This document shows positions 33,123 to 45,826 of a DNA stretch of 46,660 nucleotides, one piece after another. Below the pieces are notes generated by a model that had not been told where the DNA came from, did not search any database, and saw only the letters and a program-made list of their open reading frames with translations. The DNA comes from an uncultured Candidatus Saccharibacteria bacterium (lineage in GTDB: Bacteria > Patescibacteriota > Minisyncoccia > Phycocordibacterales > GWA1-40-21), in NCBI GenBank assembly GCA_964583845.1, contig CAZOXG010000001.1, positions 1-46,660 of the forward strand. The letters run 5' to 3'. Each line of letters opens with the position of its first letter. Within the stretch, counting starts at the first letter, position 1. The translations under genes and the position numbers were made by a program.

Positions 33123-33157
33123 TAAACCGGGTGTGCTTAAACAAGCCCGGTTTTTTC
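33123..33157 (+). terminator. Intrinsic terminator
   Basis: aaaccggg ... cccggtttttt. Confidence 0.7.
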
Positions 33158-33184
33158 GTTTGTGGTAGAATTAATATAAAATAT

Positions 33185-34171
33185 ATGACTATAGAAGAAT
33201 TTAAAAAAAATAAAAGAACTTCGTATTTGGCTGACGAATATGAACGTTTGGGTAGGGAAGAACTATCACTTAAAGACATGCTGGATAAAGATCCGGAGAT
33301 GGCAGATTTGGCGCGCGAAGAAATAGAATCTTTGATACAGCAGAAACAGGTTATTTGGCAACAGATGGAAGATATCAACAAAGCCGAACAAGCAGAGGAA
33401 GAATTTCCGAACGAGGTTATCTTGGAAGTTCGTGCTGGTGCTGGTGGTGATGAGGCCTCTTTGTTCTCTTACCAGTTAGCTGAAATGTATCGAAAATATG
33501 GAGAAGAAAAAGGTTGGTCTTTCAGCACCCTTAATACTTCTGAAAATGATCTCGGTGGATATAAAGAAGCTACTTTTGAAGTTAGAGGAAAGGACGTGTA
33601 TAAAGAGTTGAGGTATGAAACCGGTGTTCACCGTGTTCAACGTGTTCCATCAACTGAGAAAATGGGCCGTGTTCACACTTCAACAGCTTCAGTGGCGGTT
33701 TTGCCAGTTCGTAAAAAAACAAAAATTATTATTAATCCAGCAGACTTGCAAGTAGAGTTCTGTCGCGCTGGAGGAGCTGGCGGTCAAAATGTTAATAAGG
33801 TGGAAACTGCCGTTCGCTTGATTCACACACCAACTGGCATTGATGCTCGTTCCACCGCTGAACGTAGTCAGTTAAAGAATCGAGAAAAGGCGATGGAGAT
33901 TTTGTCAGCAAAATTGGAAATGAAACAACAGGAAGATGAAGCTAAAAAATACGCTAGTGAGCGTAAAGAACAGATTGGTACCGCTGATCGCTCCGAAAAG
34001 ATAAGAACATATAATGCTGCCCAGGATCGCATTACTGATCATCGTGTTAGAAATTCTTGGTATAATTACGAGAGGATATTGTCTGGTGAAAAATTTGGCG
34101 ATGTGGTTGAATATTTGGCTGAAAATATGGGTAAATCACCAAAGGAAGGGGGAGATACCGATGAAGAATAG
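33185..34171 (+). CDS. prfA: Peptide chain release factor 1
   Basis: RVQRVPSTE (PxT tripeptide, RF1 type), [33 protein letters not shown] 33185 is preferred over the upstream extension. Confidence 0.92.
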
Positions 34172-34200
34172 TATGGCTATATAGTATAAATATTTAGGAA

Positions 34201-34238
34201 GACAATAACAGAAAACCGAAGGTTTTCTGTTATTGTTC
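34201..34238 (+). terminator. Intrinsic terminator (16-bp stem)
   Basis: acaataacagaaaacc gaa ggttttctgttattgt. Confidence 0.85.
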
Positions 34239-34278
34239 TTATACTTGTACAAAATCCTTACGCTTTATCAATAAGGCG

Positions 34279-34306
34279 TTGCATTTTTTAAAAAACCTGC
34301 TAGACT
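34279..34306 (+). promoter_or_regulatory. Promoter TTGCAT-16-TAGACT, 8 nt upstream of the rpsB ATG
   Basis: ttgcat 34279-34284 (its TTG is the false start in the ORF track), tagact 34301-34306, ATG 34315. Confidence 0.45.
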
Positions 34307-34314
34307 ATCGGAAT

Positions 34315-35025
34315 ATGACTGAAGAAGTAAAAAACAAAGATTTGATAGAAACCATGTTCAAAGCCGGCGCTCATTTTGGCTATGCCAAATCACGCCGTCA
34401 TGCAACTGTGGCCCCATTTATTTTTGGCGTTAAAAACCGCACTGAAATAATTAATTTAGAGAAGACTGCGGAACTCTTGGAGAAGGCTTTGGCTTTCGTT
34501 ACTGAGTTAGGTAAAGACAATAAATCAATTTTATTCGTTGGTGGTAAAAGCGAGTCTCGTGCAGCCGTAAAAAATGCTGCTATGACTATTGATATGCCTT
34601 ATGTTTCTGGACGTTGGGTTGGTGGTACTATCACTAACTTCGTTGAAGTTCGCAAGCGTGTAATGAAATATGAAGATTTATTAAGTCAACGTGAAAAAGG
34701 TGAATTAGTTAAATATACCAAGAAAGAACGCTTACTTATTGACCGTCAGATTGATAAGCTAGAAAGACTTTTTTCTGGTTTAGTAAACTTGAAAGATTTA
34801 CCAAAAGCGATGTTTGTGGTGGATTCTAAAAAAGAACACATCGCTGTCGCCGAAGCTCGCAAGGCTGGTATTCCAGTTATCGCCCTATGTGGTACTGACT
34901 GTAATCTCAAGGAAGTAACTTTTGCTGTGGTTGCTAATGACGCTTCCGTTTCAAGTATCAACTTTTTCACTTCTGAGATTGCTAAAGCTTACAAAGCTGG
35001 CAAATCTGCTAAAAAATCTAATTAA
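34315..35025 (+). CDS. rpsB: 30S ribosomal protein S2
   Basis: AGAHFGY..SRRH, IFVG.K, GRWVGGT.TN, D......A..EA...GIPVIAL.DTD. Confidence 0.95.
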   Translation: MTEEVKNKDLIETMFKAGAHFGYAKSRRHATVAPFIFGVKNRTEIINLEKTAELLEKALAFVTELGKDNKSILFVGGKSESRAAVKNAAMTIDMPYVSGRWVGGTITNFVEVRKRVMKYEDLLSQREKGELVKYTKKERLLIDRQIDKLERLFSGLVNLKDLPKAMFVVDSKKEHIAVAEARKAGIPVIALCGTDCNLKEVTFAVVANDASVSSINFFTSEIAKAYKAGKSAKKSN

Positions 35026-35071
35026 TAGTTTCTCATCTGCGTTATGCAGAGAGATTTAATATATAAGTTCT

Positions 35072-35659
35072 ATGGTAACAACTGAACAAATTAAGGAATT
35101 AAGAGACGCTACCGGTATCTCTATAATGCAATGCCGCAAAGCTTTGGAAGACACCAACGGTGATATGGAAAAAGCAACCATTATTCTTCGTAAGAAGGGT
35201 GCTGATATTGCCTCCAAAAAAGCTGATCGTTCTCTAAACGCTGGCCGTATTGCCGCTTATGTTCACAGTTCTGGCCAAGCCGGGGCTATTTTAGAACTAT
35301 CTTGTGAGACTGATTTCGTTTCTAAAAATGAAGAGTTTTACGCTTTGGCTTATGATATTGCTATGCAAGTTGTGGCGACCAAACCAGAGTATTTGAAAAT
35401 GGAAGATATTACCGAGGCTGATCGTGAGAAAGCAAAAGAAGCTTTCTTGCCAGAGTTAGAGGGTAAACCAGAAGCGATGAAAGAAAAAATTATGGCTGGT
35501 AAACTCGATGCTTATTTTGGTGATAAGGTCCTTTTGGAACAGCCTTTCATTAAGAATGGTGATTTGAAAATTAAGGATTTAATTTCAAACTGCGTTCAGA
35601 AATTTGGTGAAAAGACTGAAATTCGTCGATTCACTCGTTTTTCTGTAACTGACAAATAA
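35072..35659 (+). CDS. tsf: Elongation factor Ts (short form)
   Basis: IKELRD.TG......C.KAL....GD.EKA...LR.KG; E..CETDFV..N..F. Confidence 0.93.
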   Translation: MVTTEQIKELRDATGISIMQCRKALEDTNGDMEKATIILRKKGADIASKKADRSLNAGRIAAYVHSSGQAGAILELSCETDFVSKNEEFYALAYDIAMQVVATKPEYLKMEDITEADREKAKEAFLPELEGKPEAMKEKIMAGKLDAYFGDKVLLEQPFIKNGDLKIKDLISNCVQKFGEKTEIRRFTRFSVTDK

Positions 35660-35669
35660 TTAAATTACT

Positions 35670-36041
35670 ATGACGGTGATTTTATTCATCGGTTCATTAA
35701 TTTTACTTTTAGCGTTTCTTGGCGTGAAGTTTTTTGAGATGCGTAAAGAGAGAGAGACGGTTGTTAGTAAAAAAATGAAACAGGCGGACAAACCTATAGA
35801 AGGTTTTATAAAACATCTCAAGCGAGAGATATCCTATATTAATCGTCGAAATGCTAAATTGTTTGGAATATTTGTTTGGAGATTGGTATACGATAAACTT
35901 TGGGAGACTAAAAAGAAACTTGATAGTAAACAATCAAAATTTTTTGTGGCTGTAACAGGGGAGAAACATTTGAGAAAATCTCAACACGTGTCTGGGTTTT
36001 TAAAGACTATTAGTAAAAACAAAATAGAATCAAAGAAATAG
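35670..36041 (+). CDS. Hypothetical N-terminally membrane-anchored basic protein
   Basis: 123-aa ORF with one N-terminal TM (ILFIGSLILLLAFLGVKFF). It lies 10 nt after tsf. Confidence 0.55.
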   Translation: MTVILFIGSLILLLAFLGVKFFEMRKERETVVSKKMKQADKPIEGFIKHLKREISYINRRNAKLFGIFVWRLVYDKLWETKKKLDSKQSKFFVAVTGEKHLRKSQHVSGFLKTISKNKIESKK

Positions 36042-36099
36042 TATTTGTTTTTTAGATTTCTTTGTGCTATCTTGTAATGGTTTCGGACAATATAAAAAG

Positions 36100-36175
36100 G
36101 CCGGCTTAGCTCAGTTGGTAGAGCAATAGTTTTGTAAACTATAGGTCCTCGGTTCAAGCCCGAGAGCCGGCTCCA
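36100..36175 (+). tRNA. trnT: tRNA-Thr (anticodon UGU), CCA encoded
   Basis: Acceptor stem GCCGGCU/AGCCGGC, D-arm AGCTCAGTTGGTAGAGC, anticodon stem atagt/actat with loop ttTGTaa, T-arm cctcgGTTCAAgcccgagg-like, discriminator T, then CCA. Confidence 0.93.
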
Positions 36176-40363: not shown

Positions 40364-41119
40364 ATGAAAGACCAAGAAACAAAACATGTACATCCAGTTA
40401 CAGATGTTATTTATAGACTTAATCAGATTTTTTCTGAGATGGGTTTTTCTTTTGTAGAGGGCCCCGAACTAGAGACGGAATATTACAATTTCGACGCTTT
40501 GAATGTTGCCAAAGATCATCCTGCTCGTGATATGCAAGACACTTTTTGGGTTAAGCCTTTTAAAAAAGATGATAACAAGTATTTAATGAGGACTCAGACT
40601 AGTGCGATGCAGGTTCACTTTATGGAGAATAGTAAACCACCGATTAGAATGTATGGTCCAGGTCGCGTGTATCGTCAGGAAGCCACGGACGCTACTCATG
40701 AAATGCAATTTTATCAGTTCGAAGGTTTGATGATTGATAAAAATGTTTCCATGTCTGACCTTAAAGGTTTTATTAATCACGTTTTTGATAAATTTTTTGA
40801 AAGAGATGTTAAAGTTCGTTTCCGTCCAAGTTATTTTCCTTTTGTAGAGCCTGGGGCCGAAGTTGATATTTCTTGTTTTAAATGCGAGGGTGTTGTTGGT
40901 TGCCCGGTTTGCAAGGGAACAGGTTGGATCGAAGTGATGGGAGCGGGAATGGTTCATCCTAAGGTTTTACAACAAGTAGGTATAAATCCTAATGAATGGC
41001 GTGGCTTCGCGTTTGGTGGTAGTATTGAACGTTTGGCGATGCTTAAGTACGGTGTGGATGATATCCGTTTGTTCTATTCGGGTGATTTACGTCTGGTCAA
41101 TCAATTTAAAGCAAAATAA
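40364..41119 (+). CDS. pheS: Phenylalanine-tRNA ligase alpha subunit, short form lacking the N-terminal coiled-coil arm
   Basis: HPV..V...I..IF..MGF....GPE.E..YYNFDALN....HPARDMQDTF, R.Q.S..Q, FRPSYFPF.EP..EVD. It is only 251 aa versus the usual ~330-350. Confidence 0.93.
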   Translation: MKDQETKHVHPVTDVIYRLNQIFSEMGFSFVEGPELETEYYNFDALNVAKDHPARDMQDTFWVKPFKKDDNKYLMRTQTSAMQVHFMENSKPPIRMYGPGRVYRQEATDATHEMQFYQFEGLMIDKNVSMSDLKGFINHVFDKFFERDVKVRFRPSYFPFVEPGAEVDISCFKCEGVVGCPVCKGTGWIEVMGAGMVHPKVLQQVGINPNEWRGFAFGGSIERLAMLKYGVDDIRLFYSGDLRLVNQFKAK

Positions 41120-41123
41120 TTTT

Positions 41124-43508
41124 ATGATATTTTCTTACCTTTGGTTAAATAATTTTTTCAAAGGAGCTTTGCCTCCAGTGGAAAAACTTTCAGATATTTT
41201 AAGTTATAATATTTCTGAAGTAGATGAAGTGTCTAAGTCTCAAAACGGGGAGACTATTTTGGATGTTAAAATTTTACCCAACCTGGCACATAATTGTTTG
41301 GCTCATCGTGGTCTAGCGCGTTTTATTGGCGCCAAGATTGATTTACCTGTTAGTAAGACTTCACGAGAAAATATTACTTTTAAAACTGATAAAACTAAAC
41401 ATCAGATTTCAGTCGAGATTGAAGATGATAAAGATTGTCGACGATATATTGGTCGCGTAATTGAAAATATTAAAATTGGACCATCTCCAGAGTGGTTAAA
41501 AAAATCTTTGGAAACTGTTGGTCAACGATCCATCAATAATGTGGTAGATGCCACGAATTTTGTTTTGCTTGAACTCGGACAGCCAATGCATGCTTTTGAC
41601 GCTGATAAATTAGTCTATCGAGGGGATAAGATTGTTATTGATATTAAACGGGCTTCCGAGGGCATGAAAATGACCACCTTGGATGGGCGTGGAATTGATT
41701 TGGATACATCAGTTTTGATTATCGGAAATGAAGATCGTCCACTAGCTATTGCTGGAGTTAAGGGTGGTTTGGAAGCCGAGGTTAATAATGAGACATTAAA
41801 TTTAGTTTTAGAATCGGCAAATTTTCAGCCTGGTTTGATTCGTCGCACCGCTCAGAAAGTAAAAATTCAAACTGATGCAACAAAGCGTTATGAGAATGAT
41901 TTATCACCAGAGACCGCCGAAGAAGCAATGGACTTGTTAACTAAAATTATTATGGAAGTGGCTGGAACTTCTGGTACAAGAATTAGCGAAGTGGTGGACA
42001 ATTATCCTCGTCGGTCTAGTCCTTATAAAATTGGCGTCACTTTAACCAGTATCAATGACTTGTTAGATTTGTCTTTAACTTCAACTGAAGTAGAAAATAT
42101 TTTTAATCGTCTTGGTTTTGCTTTTGAAAAAAGTGCTCCAGTAGAAAAGATCCTATCTTTAACTAACGAAATAGTTGGTAAACCATATCGCCTCGGAGCC
42201 AGTGTTTCCTATGATGCACCACGCGAATTTGATTGTTCCAGTATGACGGCCTATTTGTACACCCAAGCTGGCGTGGCAATTCCACGTATCTCTGTTGACC
42301 AGTATGTCTATGGTAAGCCAGTCACAGAAAAAGAAATGTTACCAGGAGATTTAATTTTTGCTAATACTGGTGAAGGTAAGAATTTTACTGAAAGTATAGA
42401 GTTCATGAAGGGGTCCAAGGTGCCTCAACCAATTGATCATGTCGGTTTGTATTTAGGAAATGGGGAAGTTCTGCAGGCCACTAGATATAAGAACGGTGTT
42501 GTAAAAGAAAGTCTAAAGGATTCTGAACAATTCCAAAATATTTCTGGTATTGCTAGAATGGTTGAAAATAGTGAAAGATATATAGTAACCGTGCCAGCCG
42601 AACGAGTTGATTTACGTATCAAAGAAGACCTGATTGAAGATGTGGCGATGATTTATGGTTATCAAAATATTAAGGAAAAAGAGGCTTACAAAGGTGATTT
42701 TAAAACCCTAGTTAATAAGAATTATTACTATGCGTCTTTGATTAGGGAGACTTTGTCTAACTTAGGTTTTTCAGAAATTTATACTTATGCATTTACACCC
42801 AAGGGCGAGGTGGAACTAATGAATCCTTTGAATGTGGAAATTCCGTTCTTGCGTAATAATTTAACTGAACCGATAAAGAAAAGTTTGGAATTTAATGCTC
42901 GAAATTCTGAGTTAATTAACATGTCACAGATTAAGATTTTTGAAATCGGAAAAGTGTTTCCGGTAAGTGGAGAATATACCTCAGTTTCCTTAGGTGTAAA
43001 GACTCCAATAGGTGTAAAAGGTTTACCAAAAGAAAAAGATGTTTTAGATGAGGTTGTTAAAAAAATAGAGGAAATTTTTGGCTGCACTTTAGTAATAACA
43101 ACTCGCGAGGATAATATTGTTGAATTTGATTTGGTTAATACTGTTGCTATGCTACCAACACCGGAAACATATAAAGATTTTTCCAATGTTGCCGAAGACA
43201 ATACTCGTTTCCGCAAGATTTCTGTCTACCCATTTATGACTCGCGACGTAGCTGTTTTTGTACCAGAAGATATTAAAGAGGCTGAATTAAGAAAATTAAT
43301 TTCAAGTAAAGCGGGCGAGCTTTTGGTAAGTATTCGTTTGTTTGATGTGTTTAAAAAACCGCAGGCTGATGGTTCAGTAAAAGTTTCTTTTGCTTATCGT
43401 TTGGTATTTCAGTCTTATGAAAAAACTTTATCTGATGAAGAAATAAATATCGTAATGACCGAAGTGAACAATGAGTTAAATTCACACGAGGGATGGCAGG
43501 TACGGTAA
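41124..43508 (+). CDS. pheT: Phenylalanine-tRNA ligase beta subunit, lacking the B2 OB-fold and carrying an NlpC/P60-like insertion in the B5 domain
   Basis: MIFSYLWLNNFF.. (canonical PheT start; the track start at 40992 overlaps pheS). B3_4 block DCRRYIGRVI..GPSP.WL...L...G.RSIN.VVD.TN.V.LE.GQP.HAFD. B5, then the insert, then ..VPAERVDL....DLIEDVAMIYGY.NI. C-terminal FDX-ACB block (YPF..RD.A..V). See findings. Confidence 0.93.
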   Translation: MIFSYLWLNNFFKGALPPVEKLSDILSYNISEVDEVSKSQNGETILDVKILPNLAHNCLAHRGLARFIGAKIDLPVSKTSRENITFKTDKTKHQISVEIEDDKDCRRYIGRVIENIKIGPSPEWLKKSLETVGQRSINNVVDATNFVLLELGQPMHAFDADKLVYRGDKIVIDIKRASEGMKMTTLDGRGIDLDTSVLIIGNEDRPLAIAGVKGGLEAEVNNETLNLVLESANFQPGLIRRTAQKVKIQTDATKRYENDLSPETAEEAMDLLTKIIMEVAGTSGTRISEVVDNYPRRSSPYKIGVTLTSINDLLDLSLTSTEVENIFNRLGFAFEKSAPVEKILSLTNEIVGKPYRLGASVSYDAPREFDCSSMTAYLYTQAGVAIPRISVDQYVYGKPVTEKEMLPGDLIFANTGEGKNFTESIEFMKGSKVPQPIDHVGLYLGNGEVLQATRYKNGVVKESLKDSEQFQNISGIARMVENSERYIVTVPAERVDLRIKEDLIEDVAMIYGYQNIKEKEAYKGDFKTLVNKNYYYASLIRETLSNLGFSEIYTYAFTPKGEVELMNPLNVEIPFLRNNLTEPIKKSLEFNARNSELINMSQIKIFEIGKVFPVSGEYTSVSLGVKTPIGVKGLPKEKDVLDEVVKKIEEIFGCTLVITTREDNIVEFDLVNTVAMLPTPETYKDFSNVAEDNTRFRKISVYPFMTRDVAVFVPEDIKEAELRKLISSKAGELLVSIRLFDVFKKPQADGSVKVSFAYRLVFQSYEKTLSDEEINIVMTEVNNELNSHEGWQVR

Positions 43509-43858: not shown

Positions 43859-44431
43859 ATGATTTTACCAATAAAACTATTTTCGCAATATTCTCCCGAA
43901 ATACCTTTGGAGTGGCAGCCGAGGGTTTGTTCTTTGTCGGTTATTAAAATGATTCTTGATTCATATTCAAAAGATCAACTTTCTTTTGAGAATATTTTTA
44001 ATGAAGTTAAGGCTATTGGAGGTTATGACGAGAGGTATGGTTGGAACCACGAGGCTTTGGTTAGAGTATTGAGAAATCATGGTGTTAATGCCTACAGACA
44101 GGAGTTTAAGAGTCGCAAAATTAATCTAGAAAATAAAAATGATCAAGTTAGTGAATTCGAGTCTGAAATGGTTAATTTTGGTCTGAAAAAAAATGTTGCT
44201 AGTCTTGAAAACGGGTTTCCGGTTATAGTTTCTGTACTTCGTCATTTCAATGAAATAGGGACAATGCATTCAGTTTTAGTGGTTGGCTTTGAAAAGGACG
44301 AAAAGGGAATTACTGGTCTATATTTTAATGATCCAGATACTAGTATTGATCAGGAAAATAAGCCTGTTTTTGTTAATCTAGAGGTTTTTACTAGAGCCTG
44401 GCGCCAGCTAGCTATTTTCATTGAAAAATAA
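43859..44431 (+). CDS. Peptidase C39-like (papain-fold) domain protein
   Basis: ..WQPRVCSLSVIKMIL.. (candidate catalytic Cys) and ..GTMHSVLVVGF... YFNDP (candidate His/Asp). The 43808 TTG start of the track lies upstream of the predicted promoter, so ATG 43859 is preferred. Confidence 0.6.
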   Translation: MILPIKLFSQYSPEIPLEWQPRVCSLSVIKMILDSYSKDQLSFENIFNEVKAIGGYDERYGWNHEALVRVLRNHGVNAYRQEFKSRKINLENKNDQVSEFESEMVNFGLKKNVASLENGFPVIVSVLRHFNEIGTMHSVLVVGFEKDEKGITGLYFNDPDTSIDQENKPVFVNLEVFTRAWRQLAIFIEK

Positions 44432-44506
44432 AATTATTTTTCTTGTGCTTGTTATCTGTAAATGGTAAAATATATGCAGTTATTATTTAAACGAGCAACT
44501 TTATAT

Positions 44507-45826
44507 ATGAGTTATAAAAATAAATTAATTCAGTTATTTTCAAAACCGTTTTTTGCATTGATTGCTATCGCTACTTTACTCTCCTCCACCTATTTCATCA
44601 CTCCTCTCCTCGCCGCCCCCTTTGCACCCGGCGAAACTCTAGATCCAAATTGTTTGCCTGGCAGTAATAATTGTAAGATTGTTGAACCTTGGACTTCCAC
44701 TGCGACATCTTCTGATATTGTCTTTAATCAATTGGGTAGTGTTGGAGTTGGTACTACTACTCCCACTAACAAATTAACTGTTGTTGGTGATACCTATATC
44801 TCTGACATTCTGTCAGTTGCTAGTACCACCGGTACTTCCACCATTTCTGGTAACCTCACCATTGGAAACTCTCTCTGTATTAATGGTGATTGTCGTTCTG
44901 TTTGGCCAGCTGTTGGTTCATCTCTTTGGGCCACTACTTCTGGTTCCAGAATTTTCTATAACGCTGGTGTCTTAATTGCTACCACAACAGACGATTTATC
45001 TGGAGCCAACCTCCAAGTAAACGGGGGACTATCTCTTAACGGCAATCTTTTTGATTCAAACAAATCAGCTGGAGTGACTGGTTACATTTTACAAACCACC
45101 GCGACTGGTACCCAGTGGGTGGCTACTACTTCTCTTAGTCTGTCTTCTAATTGGACGTCTTCTTCTTCTAATATTTATTACACCCTTGGAAACGTTAGTG
45201 TTGGCACAGCAACTTCTTCAACTAACAAACTTAATGTTTGGGGTAATTTAAATATAGCGACCGGAACCACTCCAGCTTTGTATGTTAATACTGCTTTGAG
45301 TAATGTCGGAATTGGAACTTCCACTCCAACTAAAAGTCTTACTGTTGCCGGTAATCAATATTTAACTGGTGCTTTCTATGATTCGACAAATGCTTCAGGT
45401 ACTGCTGGAATGGTTTTACAATCCACAGGAACTTCCACTCGTTGGGCGACAACAGGCTCTTCACAATGGATTTCATCTAGTTCAAATATTTATTTTAATT
45501 CTGGTAAGGTAAGTATAGGTACCACCAATACTATTGATACTTTAAGTGTTGTTGGAACCTCTTCATTCTTTGGTAGTATTTTGAATAAGGTTTCATCTTT
45601 ATCTGATCCTAAAATTATTGGTACATTAAGCGGATTCGGAATCAATTCAACAGTAGCGGTTTCTGGTAATTATTTATATTTGGGAAGTGCTGGTACCGAT
45701 TATAGTAGTACTCAGGGCGTGTATGTTGTAGACACTACTAATCCATACAGTCCGAGGCTAATAAGTAATTTACCACTTGTAAATAGTAATATATCTGACA
45801 TGACTATATTCGGTCATTATATATAG
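44507..45826 (+). CDS. Secreted fibre/LVIVD-repeat surface protein, 5' segment (ends at a premature TAG inside a (TA)4 tract)
   Basis: Signal anchor MSYKNKLIQLFSKPFFALIAIATLLSS.., PGETLDPNCLPGSNNC (same module as in the 25405 protein), VGVGTTTPTNKLTVVG fibre repeats, and a first LVIVD-type unit AVSGNYLYLGS..GVYVVDTTNPYSP. Confidence 0.75.
   Translation: MSYKNKLIQLFSKPFFALIAIATLLSSTYFITPLLAAPFAPGETLDPNCLPGSNNCKIVEPWTSTATSSDIVFNQLGSVGVGTTTPTNKLTVVGDTYISDILSVASTTGTSTISGNLTIGNSLCINGDCRSVWPAVGSSLWATTSGSRIFYNAGVLIATTTDDLSGANLQVNGGLSLNGNLFDSNKSAGVTGYILQTTATGTQWVATTSLSLSSNWTSSSSNIYYTLGNVSVGTATSSTNKLNVWGNLNIATGTTPALYVNTALSNVGIGTSTPTKSLTVAGNQYLTGAFYDSTNASGTAGMVLQSTGTSTRWATTGSSQWISSSSNIYFNSGKVSIGTTNTIDTLSVVGTSSFFGSILNKVSSLSDPKIIGTLSGFGINSTVAVSGNYLYLGSAGTDYSSTQGVYVVDTTNPYSPRLISNLPLVNSNISDMTIFGHYI

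Follow-up and report, generated by a model that had tools for sequence, protein, structure and literature searches.

Aminoacyl-tRNA synthetases (aaRSs) are known to house hydrolases within the synthetase itself: the editing domains (B3/4 of PheRS; CP1 of Leu/Ile/ValRS; INS of ProRS; N2 of ThrRS and AlaRS) are modules of this kind, conserved by clade. To our knowledge, none of these editing domains uses a catalytic cysteine thioester, and aaRSs rarely gain whole catalytic domains from unrelated families. Among the NlpC/P60 cysteine hydrolases there is precedent for a cytoplasmic enzyme, B. subtilis YkfC, which recycles murein peptides. Here we describe a PheRS beta subunit that carries a genuine NlpC/P60 (C40) cysteine hydrolase domain within its B5 beta-hairpin. 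It is encoded in the window, by which we mean the whole 46,660-nucleotide stretch of DNA that was analysed, and its features are as follows.

40364..41119, plus strand: pheS, PheRS alpha subunit, a short form of 251 aa without the N-terminal coiled coil
41124..43508, plus strand: pheT, PheRS beta subunit of 794 aa, with NlpC/P60 inside B5 and B2 absent
41436..41966, plus strand: B3/4 editing domain, residues 105-281, editing-site residues kept
42009..42137, plus strand: N-terminal half of B5, approximately residues 296-338, closing strand 333-337 (AF2 secondary structure)
42138..42575, plus strand: NlpC/P60 (C40) papain-like domain, residues 339-484, in the B5 beta-hairpin
42234..42236, plus strand: codon (tgt) of the nucleophile Cys371, FDCS motif
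42438..42440, plus strand: codon (cat) of the catalytic His439, DHVG motif
42474..42476, plus strand: codon (cag) of the third triad residue, Gln451
42576..42668, plus strand: C-terminal half of B5, residues 485-515, with strand 485-489 and helix 500-511 (AF2)
42669..43508, plus strand: B6/7 catalytic-like module and B8 FDX-ACB anticodon-binding domain (Pfam tRNA_synthFbeta 537-614, FDX-ACB 700-794)

An NlpC/P60 domain inside the B5 domain of PheRS beta

The pheS product matches Pfam tRNA-synt_2d (2.8e-98) and TIGR00468 (307.8 bits, with the alignment beginning at profile position 68). Its gene ends at 41119 and is directly followed by pheT, an order found in nearly all related loci. The longest pheT open reading frame opens at 40992, overlapping pheS; we take 41124 as the start because the resulting 794-aa product matches its homologues end to end. 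A Pfam scan of the whole protein recovered B3_4 (residues 105-281), NLPC_P60 (352-466; E 2.1e-17, 63.4 bits, cutoff 23) and FDX-ACB (700-794), together with a CLM match, and the only B5 match was to the C-terminal half of that domain (profile positions 34-67, residues 480-513). The AF2 model of PheT (pLDDT 91.3) matches bacterial PheRS beta chains in Foldseek, with E values from 1e-46 to 1e-35. Against the pheT_bact equivalog TIGR00472 the protein scores 409.6 bits, above the cutoff of 402.65. The margin is narrow, because B2 is lacking and the alignment enters the profile only at position 158, and because the insert breaks the match into separate stretches. The original prediction had pheT reading normally through B1 and B3_4 into B5, and the domain set needs correcting: B2 (tRNA_bind, PF01588) was not found by Pfam in the window PheT, and is absent in most relatives too, with P0090 and P0105 retaining it. 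An Rfam scan of the whole window returned only a tRNA-Thr, and promoter and terminator scans around pheT gave results at chance level.

The reading frame of pheT is unbroken across the insert, and its borders were set by alignment with two insert-less relatives, P0071 and P0108, which are gapped there. On the N-terminal side, the alignment of the first B5 half to S. haemolyticus PheT ends at S. haemolyticus residue 443. On the other side, the second B5 half is the best conserved segment of PheT, with 75% mean pairwise identity. The unbroken frame, the Pfam matches and the alignment to insert-less relatives together bear out the earlier claim of an in-frame NlpC/P60 insertion splitting B5. It had been placed at 42135-42575; its end holds, while its start moves by 3 nt to 42138.

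Profile and structure searches, both proposed earlier as checks, agree on the identity of the insert. Searched alone, the 147-aa stretch matches NLPC_P60 (PF00877) at 2.4e-19 (69.7 bits, cutoff 23), and by sequence its match in the PDB is 7cfl (5.6e-15). An AF2 model of B5 together with the NlpC/P60 domain reaches pLDDT 95 and pTM 0.90, and predicts that the two form one rigid two-domain module. The top Foldseek match of this module in the PDB is again 7CFL (TMt 0.88-0.91, rmsd 1.6-2.2 Å), and the best 50 of 63 PDB matches (E<=1e-3) are NlpC/P60-type peptidoglycan hydrolases or uncharacterised relatives; the closest structural neighbours (7CFL, 3H41, MepS, CwlO and LytE) are without exception peptidoglycan DL-endopeptidases. 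The model shows a papain-like alpha+beta fold in which the N-terminal helix bears the Cys and the beta-sheet bears the His. In Pfam, NCBIfam and the PDB the insert matches only NlpC/P60, and none of the known editing folds (B3/4, CP1, INS/YbaK, N2/AlaX, DTD-like). No export signal or cell-wall-binding module accompanies the insert, which is internal to a cytoplasmic aaRS subunit.

We considered whether an assembly chimera or a frameshift might have joined a neighbouring NlpC/P60 gene to pheT. The window is a metagenome-assembled contig, and we found no support for such an artefact beyond that fact. The insert junctions are shared by more than 115 of the best 120 PheT homologues (from NCBI, JGI, ENA and Logan assemblies) and by approximately 50 GTDB species genomes, including the complete chromosomes CP011215.1 and OY970290.1. 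The same junctions thus recur in more than 100 independent assemblies, and in the model the two halves of B5 fold together on either side of the insert (pLDDT above 90). For practical purposes, the artefact is refuted.

The codons of the catalytic Cys and His lie exactly where they had been read from the sequence, and the polar Gln proposed as the third residue is Gln451. Cys371 and His439 are invariant in all 54 insert-bearing homologues compared, as are Asp370, Ser372, Arg388, Asp392, Gly408, Asp409, Asn414, Asp438 and Tyr443. At the position of Gln451, 48 of the 54 have His, three have Gln (the window included), two have Tyr and one has Asn. The Cys-His-(His/Gln) triad is therefore under strong purifying selection, and the scaffold is not a degenerate one. 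It could nevertheless be argued that the insert has merely kept a peptidase-like fold and plays no catalytic part, its role being structural, regulatory or one of docking; it might, for instance, sense a ligand resembling a muropeptide or bring in the C39-like protein described below. Dead NlpC/P60 domains do exist (RipD, which is among the NCBIfam matches of PheT, is an example), the third triad residue varies between His, Gln, Tyr and Asn, and a module as rigid as the one predicted could act as a platform. However, inactive paralogues typically lose the Cys. Here, both catalytic residues and the neighbouring Asp370, Ser372, Asp438 and Tyr443 persist in 54 of 54 sequences down to approximately 45% identity, and standalone versions of the domain (see below) hold the Cys and His as well. 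We consider a non-catalytic role improbable.

The editing domain of the host enzyme is also intact. By alignment, window residues H156, G214, E230, T250, A252 and N145 correspond to H265, G318, E334, T354, A356 and N254 of the E. coli beta subunit (3PCO_B), which we take to be editing-site residues; H156, G214 and E230 are invariant across 56 PheT homologues. Compensation for lost editing can be ruled out on these grounds. Two other proposals were set aside. The insert does not appear to stand in for B2 or for the coiled coil absent from the alpha subunit, since insert-less relatives equally lack B2 and have a similarly short PheS. A role as an RNA-binding surface is unsupported, the insert being acidic (mean net charge -3.6).

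Spread and inheritance of the insert

The original prediction knew of no other aaRS with an NlpC/P60 domain. The architecture is in fact common in public data: we found it in more than 100 protein clusters and approximately 50 species genomes, all of them Patescibacteria (Paceibacteria-type). A survey of orthologues, also suggested at that stage, located the same insertion point in these relatives, and it is identical in every insert-bearing sequence aligned. We found no literature, in full-text searches, on an NlpC/P60 domain in PheRS or on the C39-like gene linked to it; a paper on the classification of papain-like peptidases mentions tRNA synthetases only among its references.

We next compared the history of the insert with that of its host. 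Mean pairwise identity is 56.5% for the insert versus 51.9% for the rest of PheT, and the two sets of distances are correlated (Mantel r = 0.66; 0 of 999 permutations as high). In neighbour-joining, unbootstrapped trees, the B5-embedded NlpC/P60 domains form a single clade, and clades agree between the insert tree and the PheT tree. The correlation and the matching clades indicate vertical descent, and we conclude that the insertion is old and vertically inherited. Two lineages appear to have lost the insert precisely. At the insert-less P0071 loci the order GT2-pheS-pheT-gyrB is kept and the C39-like gene is missing; only one of the two loss lineages has downstream DNA, and the absence of that gene refers to this one.

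An alternative is that the two B5 halves, the NlpC/P60 domain between them and the C39-like gene make up a mobile cassette that recombines via the B5 halves, with only an opportunistic link to PheRS. Both B5 halves are present on standalone genes and could serve as homology arms, the two insert losses look precise, and the gene pair occurs in unrelated neighbourhoods. We nonetheless judge such a cassette very improbable: insert and host have diverged in a correlated way with agreeing clades, the insertion point is the same in all sequences, and the surroundings of the gene in the window showed no transposase, integrase or repeats.

A linked C39-like peptidase gene and standalone modules

Downstream of pheT lies a further gene.

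43859..44431, plus strand: C39-like (Peptidase_C39_2) cysteine peptidase gene, 190 aa, no signal peptide

Its start agrees with the N-termini of homologues, and its product matches PF13529 (5.8e-08, 33.9 bits, cutoff 24); no family was found for it in NCBIfam or PHROGs. Among 31 homologues, Cys24, His137, Gly143 and Trp181 are present in all, Gln10 and Asp158 in 30, and His64 is invariant or nearly so. The nearest solved relative is 3ERV, itself an uncharacterised C39-like protein. Database searches returned only single-domain proteins of 185-200 aa and no informative fusions.

The C39-like gene is adjacent in 25 of 40 loci that have pheT with the insert and within 10 kb in three more; in the remaining 12 there is none within the flanks. 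A reverse locus search, run with six closer C39-like sequences, found a PheRS/NlpC module at most approximately 2.5 kb upstream in 66 of 72 informative loci (92%), and no C39-like homologue beside an insert-less pheT. Because the gene order GT2-pheS-pheT-C39-gyrB is partly kept by descent, adjacency alone overstates functional coupling. Taken together, these data show genetic coupling between the NlpC/P60 module and the small, cytoplasmic C39-like cysteine peptidase whose gene lies just downstream. This linked gene, the standalone genes described next, the joint loss of insert and C39-like gene and the wide spread of the architecture all go beyond what had been noticed originally.

In some relatives, B5 with NlpC/P60 is also found as a separate gene of 200-230 aa, followed by a C39-like gene that in some cases overlaps it (L001, L005 and L048). 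These standalone versions carry both B5 halves, retain the Cys and His, and lack a signal peptide, with B5 right at their start. At L001, the GT2...gyrB synteny is kept while pheS and the remainder of pheT are gone; at L005, the gene pair sits in an unrelated neighbourhood, and neither L005 nor L095 has any PheRS gene near it. Selection can act on the module independently: it persists as its own gene after the remainder of pheT has disappeared.

The module and its partner gene also persist where a monomeric PheRS replaces the beta subunit. The PheRS beside the standalone modules in L048, L128 and L158 consists of Pfam tRNA-synt_2d and FDX-ACB, scores below cutoff against both TIGR00469 (237.6 bits) and NF051887 'SrmL' (251 bits), and has no B3/4 editing domain. 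In a third architecture, an NlpC/P60 gene without B5 lies 10 nt upstream of the monomeric PheRS. In a rough tree this B5-less domain falls outside the B5-embedded clade, so its association with PheRS may be independent or a matter of synteny.

These arrangements raise the possibility that the substrate of the NlpC/P60 domain and its C39-like partner is the acyl end of tRNAPhe. If that tRNA were mis-acylated, D-aminoacylated or N-blocked, its aminoacyl or peptidyl group would be taken over by Cys371 as a thioester and then hydrolysed or transferred; the outcome would be a second, cysteine-based editing or rescue activity, or delivery of Phe to an acceptor amine such as a cell-wall precursor or a protein N-terminus. 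Linkage to PheRS is kept in three architectures (within pheT, as a gene between the monomeric PheS~FDX-ACB enzyme and the C39-like gene, and as the B5-less gene), and a trans-acting hydrolase would be useful where the monomeric PheRS lacks B3/4. In solved PheRS structures (PMC12449066), B5 touches both the B3/4 editing domain and the alpha subunit, which could place the insert close to the path taken by the tRNA acceptor end. A conserved, family-specific loop of approximately 17 residues precedes the catalytic His, and LRAT and HRASLS, which are thioester-forming acyltransferases, belong to the NlpC/P60 superfamily. On the other hand, we know of no NlpC/P60 enzyme that acts on tRNA, all 56 PheTs examined retain a complete B3/4 editing site, the insert carries its negative charge, the pair occurs at L005 and L095 with no PheRS gene nearby, and the B5-less domain of the third architecture lies outside the main clade. 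We therefore think action on tRNAPhe somewhat unlikely. Its specific form, in which the two proteins would make up a previously unknown cysteine-based system that hydrolyses or transfers Phe from Phe-tRNAPhe, is a little more doubtful still, although it would account for a module that remains next to PheRS genes after the beta subunit is lost. For an extra or replacement editing module, the former suggested in the original prediction, we found no positive support, given the B3/4 residues kept, the acidic insert and a module that survives away from PheRS.

Proposed function and comparison with known systems

Our tentative preference is for a cytoplasmic two-peptidase module that uses PheRS as its carrier. 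Among the roles first put forward, a peptide amidase tethered to an essential enzyme appears to fit best. Cys371 would be activated by His439, itself oriented by Gln451 (His in most relatives), and would act on a small peptide in the cytoplasm, attacking one of its amide or isopeptide bonds via a thioester, as in gamma-D-glutamyl-diamino-acid endopeptidases. Going by family resemblance alone, the most plausible substrate would be a murein-type peptide that the cell scavenges or recycles. The C39-like enzyme may cut another bond of the same substrate, or activate it. PheRS would be carrier and scaffold rather than substrate, offering guaranteed co-expression and possibly localisation, and aminoacylation and B3/4 editing would be unaffected. 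Several points count against this proposal: a scaffold role leaves unexplained why the module stays beside PheRS genes through three architectures and why standalone genes retain both B5 halves, 12 of the 40 loci have no C39-like gene within the flanks, and the contacts of B5 could bring the insert near the tRNA acceptor end.

Whatever the substrate, the Patescibacteria have otherwise stripped-down genomes, yet a major branch of them has kept a papain-like cysteine hydrolase with intact catalytic residues in a synthetase that is essential. Informative variants occur naturally: the module is found by itself and beside a monomeric PheRS, and there are PheTs from which the insert has been cleanly lost, once without the partner gene at the locus. 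They suggest that selection acts on the domain for its own activity, and they point to two peptidases forming a unit. A peptide substrate would mean a new salvage activity in the cytoplasm of these host-dependent bacteria; with Phe-tRNA as substrate, the chemistry would be new to translational quality control or to tRNA-dependent transfer.

Each of the known systems resembles this locus in part. The monomeric PheRS of L048, L128 and L158, which concerns relatives of the window only, shares the architecture of the mitochondrial type (a PheS core fused to FDX-ACB), but is bacterial and lies beside NlpC/P60 and C39-like genes. The aaRS editing domains are unrelated to the insert in fold and chemistry, the insert being papain-like with a cysteine nucleophile; moreover, the host's own editing site is kept here, and the domain also occurs as a separate gene with a peptidase partner. 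LRAT and HRASLS (PLAAT) share the Cys-His acyl-thioester chemistry and show that the fold can transfer acyl groups or hydrolyse, but they are circularly permuted, membrane-associated and lipid-acting, whereas the insert has the classical, non-permuted p60 order.

The peptidoglycan DL-endopeptidases of the p60/CwlO/LytE/MepS type have the same fold as the insert (the best match, 7CFL, is the catalytic domain of the C. difficile autolysin Acd24020, at approximately 30% identity), the same Cys-His-polar triad and the same motif order: G-x-PY, FDCS, (I/L)PR, PGD-(L/V)-(I/V)-F and DH-x-G-x-Y-x-G. The insert differs in lying inside a cytoplasmic aaRS without a signal peptide or LysM, SH3b or coiled-coil targeting domains, in having 'GAS-x-x-x-DAP' where the p60-type enzymes have 'WGG', and in the extra loop before the catalytic His. 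Finally, the YkfC-type enzymes (the B. cereus homologue 3H41 is a structural neighbour of the insert, at Foldseek rank 8) are likewise cytoplasmic NlpC/P60 enzymes, gamma-D-glutamyl-L-diamino-acid endopeptidases that also work with peptide-processing enzymes encoded nearby. YkfC holds its substrate with N-terminal SH3b domains and is not linked to any tRNA synthetase; here, the B5 winged-helix fold of PheRS is the accessory domain, and the partner is a C39-like peptidase.

Domain layout of the PheRS genes

The original prediction placed an NlpC/P60 domain within a split B5 domain of the PheRS beta subunit. A Pfam match to the insert alone (E 2.4e-19) and an alignment to two insert-less relatives bear this out. 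The alignment sets the insert at PheT residues 339-484.

Features of the window (domains by Pfam, in PheT residues)
40364-41119, +, pheS, 251 aa, without the N-terminal coiled coil
41124-43508, +, pheT, 794 aa, beginning 4 nt past pheS
42138-42575, +, NlpC/P60 insert
Residues 105-281, +, B3_4
Residues 352-466, +, NLPC_P60 (E 2.1e-17)
Residues 480-513, +, B5, C-terminal half only (profile positions 34-67)
Within PheT, +, catalytic-like module
Residues 700-794, +, FDX-ACB
43859-44431, +, Peptidase_C39_2-like gene (hereafter C39-like), 190 aa, no signal peptide, downstream of pheT

We place the pheT start at 41124, from which the product matches its homologues over their full length. The longest ORF opens 132 nt further upstream, at 40992, within pheS in a different frame (40992-41123), and automatic longest-ORF calling would add 44 spurious residues. 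The full protein scores narrowly above the cutoff of the NCBIfam pheT_bact equivalog (409.6 bits against 402.65), and that alignment begins only at profile position 158, so PheT lacks the B2 tRNA-binding domain. The PheRS of the window is reduced (40364-41119, 41124-41435), with a short PheS and a PheT minus B2 (tRNA_bind/OB). In Thermus PheRS, the N-terminal coiled coil of PheS contacts tRNA. A short PheS is also found in relatives without the insert, and a few homologues of about 900 aa (P0090 and P0105) retain B2 alongside the insert, unlike most relatives.

The catalytic codons had been assigned correctly: tgt at 42234-42236 encodes Cys371 and cat at 42438-42440 encodes His439, and the polar residue at the third position is indeed a glutamine, Gln451 (42474-42476). 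In an alignment to S. haemolyticus PheT (PDB 2RHS), the match is interrupted between 2RHS residues 443 and 449. The AlphaFold model of full-length PheT (mean pLDDT 91.3) shows B5 as a strand-helix-helix-strand at 302-337, then the insert, then a strand at 485-489 and a helix at 500-511, which places NlpC/P60 at the tip of the B5 beta-hairpin. A separate model of B5 plus insert (pLDDT 95, pTM 0.90) predicts a single rigid two-domain unit. The 50 best of 63 Foldseek matches to this unit in the PDB (E<=1e-3) are NlpC/P60-type peptidoglycan hydrolases and uncharacterised relatives; the top one, with TMt 0.88-0.91, rmsd 1.6-2.2 A and 30% identity, is 7CFL, from the C. difficile autolysin Acd24020. 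At full length, the model matched PheRS beta chains of bacteria at E values of 1e-46 to 1e-35, and this search returned no solved PheRS with such a domain.

Distribution and inheritance of the insert

The insert is widespread among relatives of this PheT. More than 115 of the 120 best homologues, drawn from NCBI, JGI, ENA and Logan assemblies, share its Pfam architecture at 43-95% identity, and their source names are Paceibacterota, Yonath-, Taylor- and Pacebacteria, and Minisyncoccia. A phmmer search of 1.84 billion cluster representatives with the insert gave 81 matches at E<=1e-30, mostly proteins of 770-840 aa matched near residues 330-480. When one genome per GTDB species was scanned, about 50 gave a full split-B5 match; all records naming a group were Patescibacteria lineages, and the remaining titles read just 'bacterium' or 'uncultured bacterium'. 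Some titles, 'uncultured Candidatus Saccharibacteria' among them, may have been assigned by a pipeline. The next-ranked matches were free NlpC/P60 proteins of other phyla, at roughly 30-35% identity. An assembly artefact joining an NlpC/P60 gene to pheT is unlikely, since the architecture recurs across independent assemblies, including two complete chromosomes (CP011215.1 and OY970290.1). The original prediction left novelty in doubt: the architecture is already annotated automatically in public databases (NCBI labels insert-bearing homologues 'PheT-related protein' or 'C40 family peptidase'), but full-text literature searching returned nothing that describes this architecture, the linked C39-like gene or the standalone modules presented below.

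Across 54 insert-bearing PheTs, Cys371 and His439 are invariant, as are Asp370, Ser372, Arg388, Asp392, Gly408, Asp409, Asn414, Asp438 and Tyr443. At the third triad position, 48 have His, three have Gln (the subclade of the window), two have Tyr and one has Asn. With this conservation, a non-catalytic role for the insert is improbable. The insert is on average more conserved than the remainder of PheT (mean pairwise identity 56.5% versus 51.9%), and its divergence follows that of its host protein (Mantel r 0.66, with 0 of 999 permutations as high), which argues for a single old insertion followed by vertical inheritance; a mobile cassette is an unlikely account of the module. The insert is a genuine NlpC/P60 domain of ancient origin, and the conservation of its catalytic residues points to selection on its enzymatic function.

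A linked C39-like peptidase and natural variants of the module

The C39-like gene downstream of pheT encodes a protein whose Cys24, His64, His137, Gly143 and Trp181 are invariant in 31 homologues, with Gln10 and Asp158 conserved in 30. Where 700 nt or more of sequence was available downstream (40 pheT+insert loci), this gene directly adjoins pheT in 25 (distances are approximate, as stop-to-stop frames often overlap) and lies within 10 kb in three more; it was not seen in the available flanks of the other 12, three of which have gyrB directly after pheT. Conversely, a search of metagenome contigs that used only the C39-like protein as query gave 80 loci: 33 adjoin pheT+insert, three a standalone module, and 14 a PheT C-terminus truncated by the contig end, while 16 have PheRS or NlpC genes one gene away, eight extend too short a way upstream for a verdict and six show no such genes. 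None of the 80 adjoins an insert-less pheT. Because pheST gene order is partly conserved by descent, these adjacency counts are inflated, and events of co-loss and co-retention, though few, are the stronger evidence of linkage.

Relatives with other architectures (locus positions)
L001 846-1505; L005 10001-10600: standalone B5+NlpC/P60 genes (also P0129, P0133, P0134, P0136, P0191, P0259)
L048 8833-11211; L128; L158 1775-4552: monomeric PheRS loci
L002 10001-11944 (P0071); L166 8001-9935 (P0108): insert-less PheTs

The standalone genes (200-230 aa) encode exactly the B5 N-half, NlpC/P60, the B5 C-half and a short tail. In L001, the module and a C39-like gene lie between a GT2 gene and gyrB, which flank pheS-pheT elsewhere; L001 therefore shed pheS and the rest of pheT while the module stayed. 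In L005, the two genes overlap in reading frame within an unrelated neighbourhood. In one subgroup of the standalone genes (P0215, P0243 and P0168, the last a 483-aa protein that is apparently a PheT C-terminal fragment), FSCSS replaces FDCSS and MPS replaces IPR, with Cys and His kept.

L048 and L128 have the order PheS core~FDX-ACB (382 aa), B5+NlpC/P60, C39-like, gyrB. The fusion resembles monomeric mitochondrial-type PheRS in architecture and scores under the cutoffs of TIGR00469 and of the 'SrmL' model in NCBIfam. Patescibacteria with this fusion seem to have given up the beta subunit, including its B3/4 editing domain. In L158, L159, L163 and L165, a 156-aa NlpC/P60 protein without B5 lies 10 nt upstream of the monomeric PheRS, with a C39-like gene about 0.6 kb downstream; in a rough neighbour-joining tree, this NlpC/P60 protein branches outside the clade of B5-embedded domains.

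In P0071 and P0108, the two insert-less PheTs, the B5 hairpin closes cleanly. Both branch from within the insert-bearing sequences in the PheT tree (like the NlpC/P60 tree, neighbour-joining without support values), with P0071 sister to the lineage of the window, which implies that a 146-residue domain was twice removed precisely from an essential gene. P0071 loci retain GT2-pheS-pheT-gyrB and lack the C39-like gene there; the P0108 contig stops too early to show it either way. Altogether, selection keeps the B5+NlpC/P60 unit whether or not the rest of the beta subunit is kept, and across Patescibacteria the unit is coupled to the C39-like cysteine peptidase.

Elsewhere in the window, 33131-36175 holds a peptide chain release factor gene (PCRF, RF-1 domains), rpsB, tsf, tRNA-Thr(TGT) and a 123-aa ORF with no Pfam match; after these, and immediately ahead of pheS, come GT2 glycosyltransferase genes and a gene with a PEGA domain. 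This upstream order is largely common to the insert-less L002. Downstream, a 454-aa ORF (44462-45826, +) combines a hydrophobic segment at its N-terminus with a long repetitive body rich in Thr, Ser and Gly; it has no Pfam match and may encode a surface protein.

Candidate functions and comparison with known systems

We considered whether the insert substitutes for lost editing. E. coli beta H265, G318, E334, T354, A356 and N254 are residues that we take, from the E. coli literature, to form the B3/4 editing site. By alignment to 3PCO_B, they correspond to H156, G214, E230, T250, A252 and N145 of the window, the first three of which are invariant in 56 of 56 aligned sequences. Because these residues are intact, a lost editing site is not what the insert replaces, and we ruled this explanation out.

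We tentatively favour a reading in which the NlpC/P60 domain, carried by PheRS, and the C39-like peptidase would form a cytoplasmic hydrolase pair for a peptide or isopeptide, a substrate we infer. It is favoured because the sequence and structural neighbours of the insert are DL-endopeptidases (the PDB list includes uncharacterised relatives), the partner is likewise a peptidase, the insert is acidic, the pair can occur apart from PheRS, the host editing site is intact, and some NlpC/P60 enzymes, such as YkfC, are known to recycle murein peptides in the cytoplasm. The main rival, which we consider less likely, is that NlpC/P60 acts on the acyl end of tRNAPhe, in editing, rescue or Phe transfer. 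Consistent with it, the module is linked to PheRS genes across three architectures, it adjoins a monomeric PheRS without an editing domain, and in solved structures of PheRS (PMC12449066) B5 lies next to both B3/4 and the alpha subunit.

This PheT can be described as an aminoacyl-tRNA synthetase subunit that has acquired a domain, or as a new setting for NlpC/P60; only a tRNA-directed role, if true, would make it new as a category. Compared with classical NlpC/P60 proteins, the insert family has 'GAS-x-x-x-DAP' where classical members have 'WGG', and carries a conserved additional loop of about 17 residues directly before the catalytic His.
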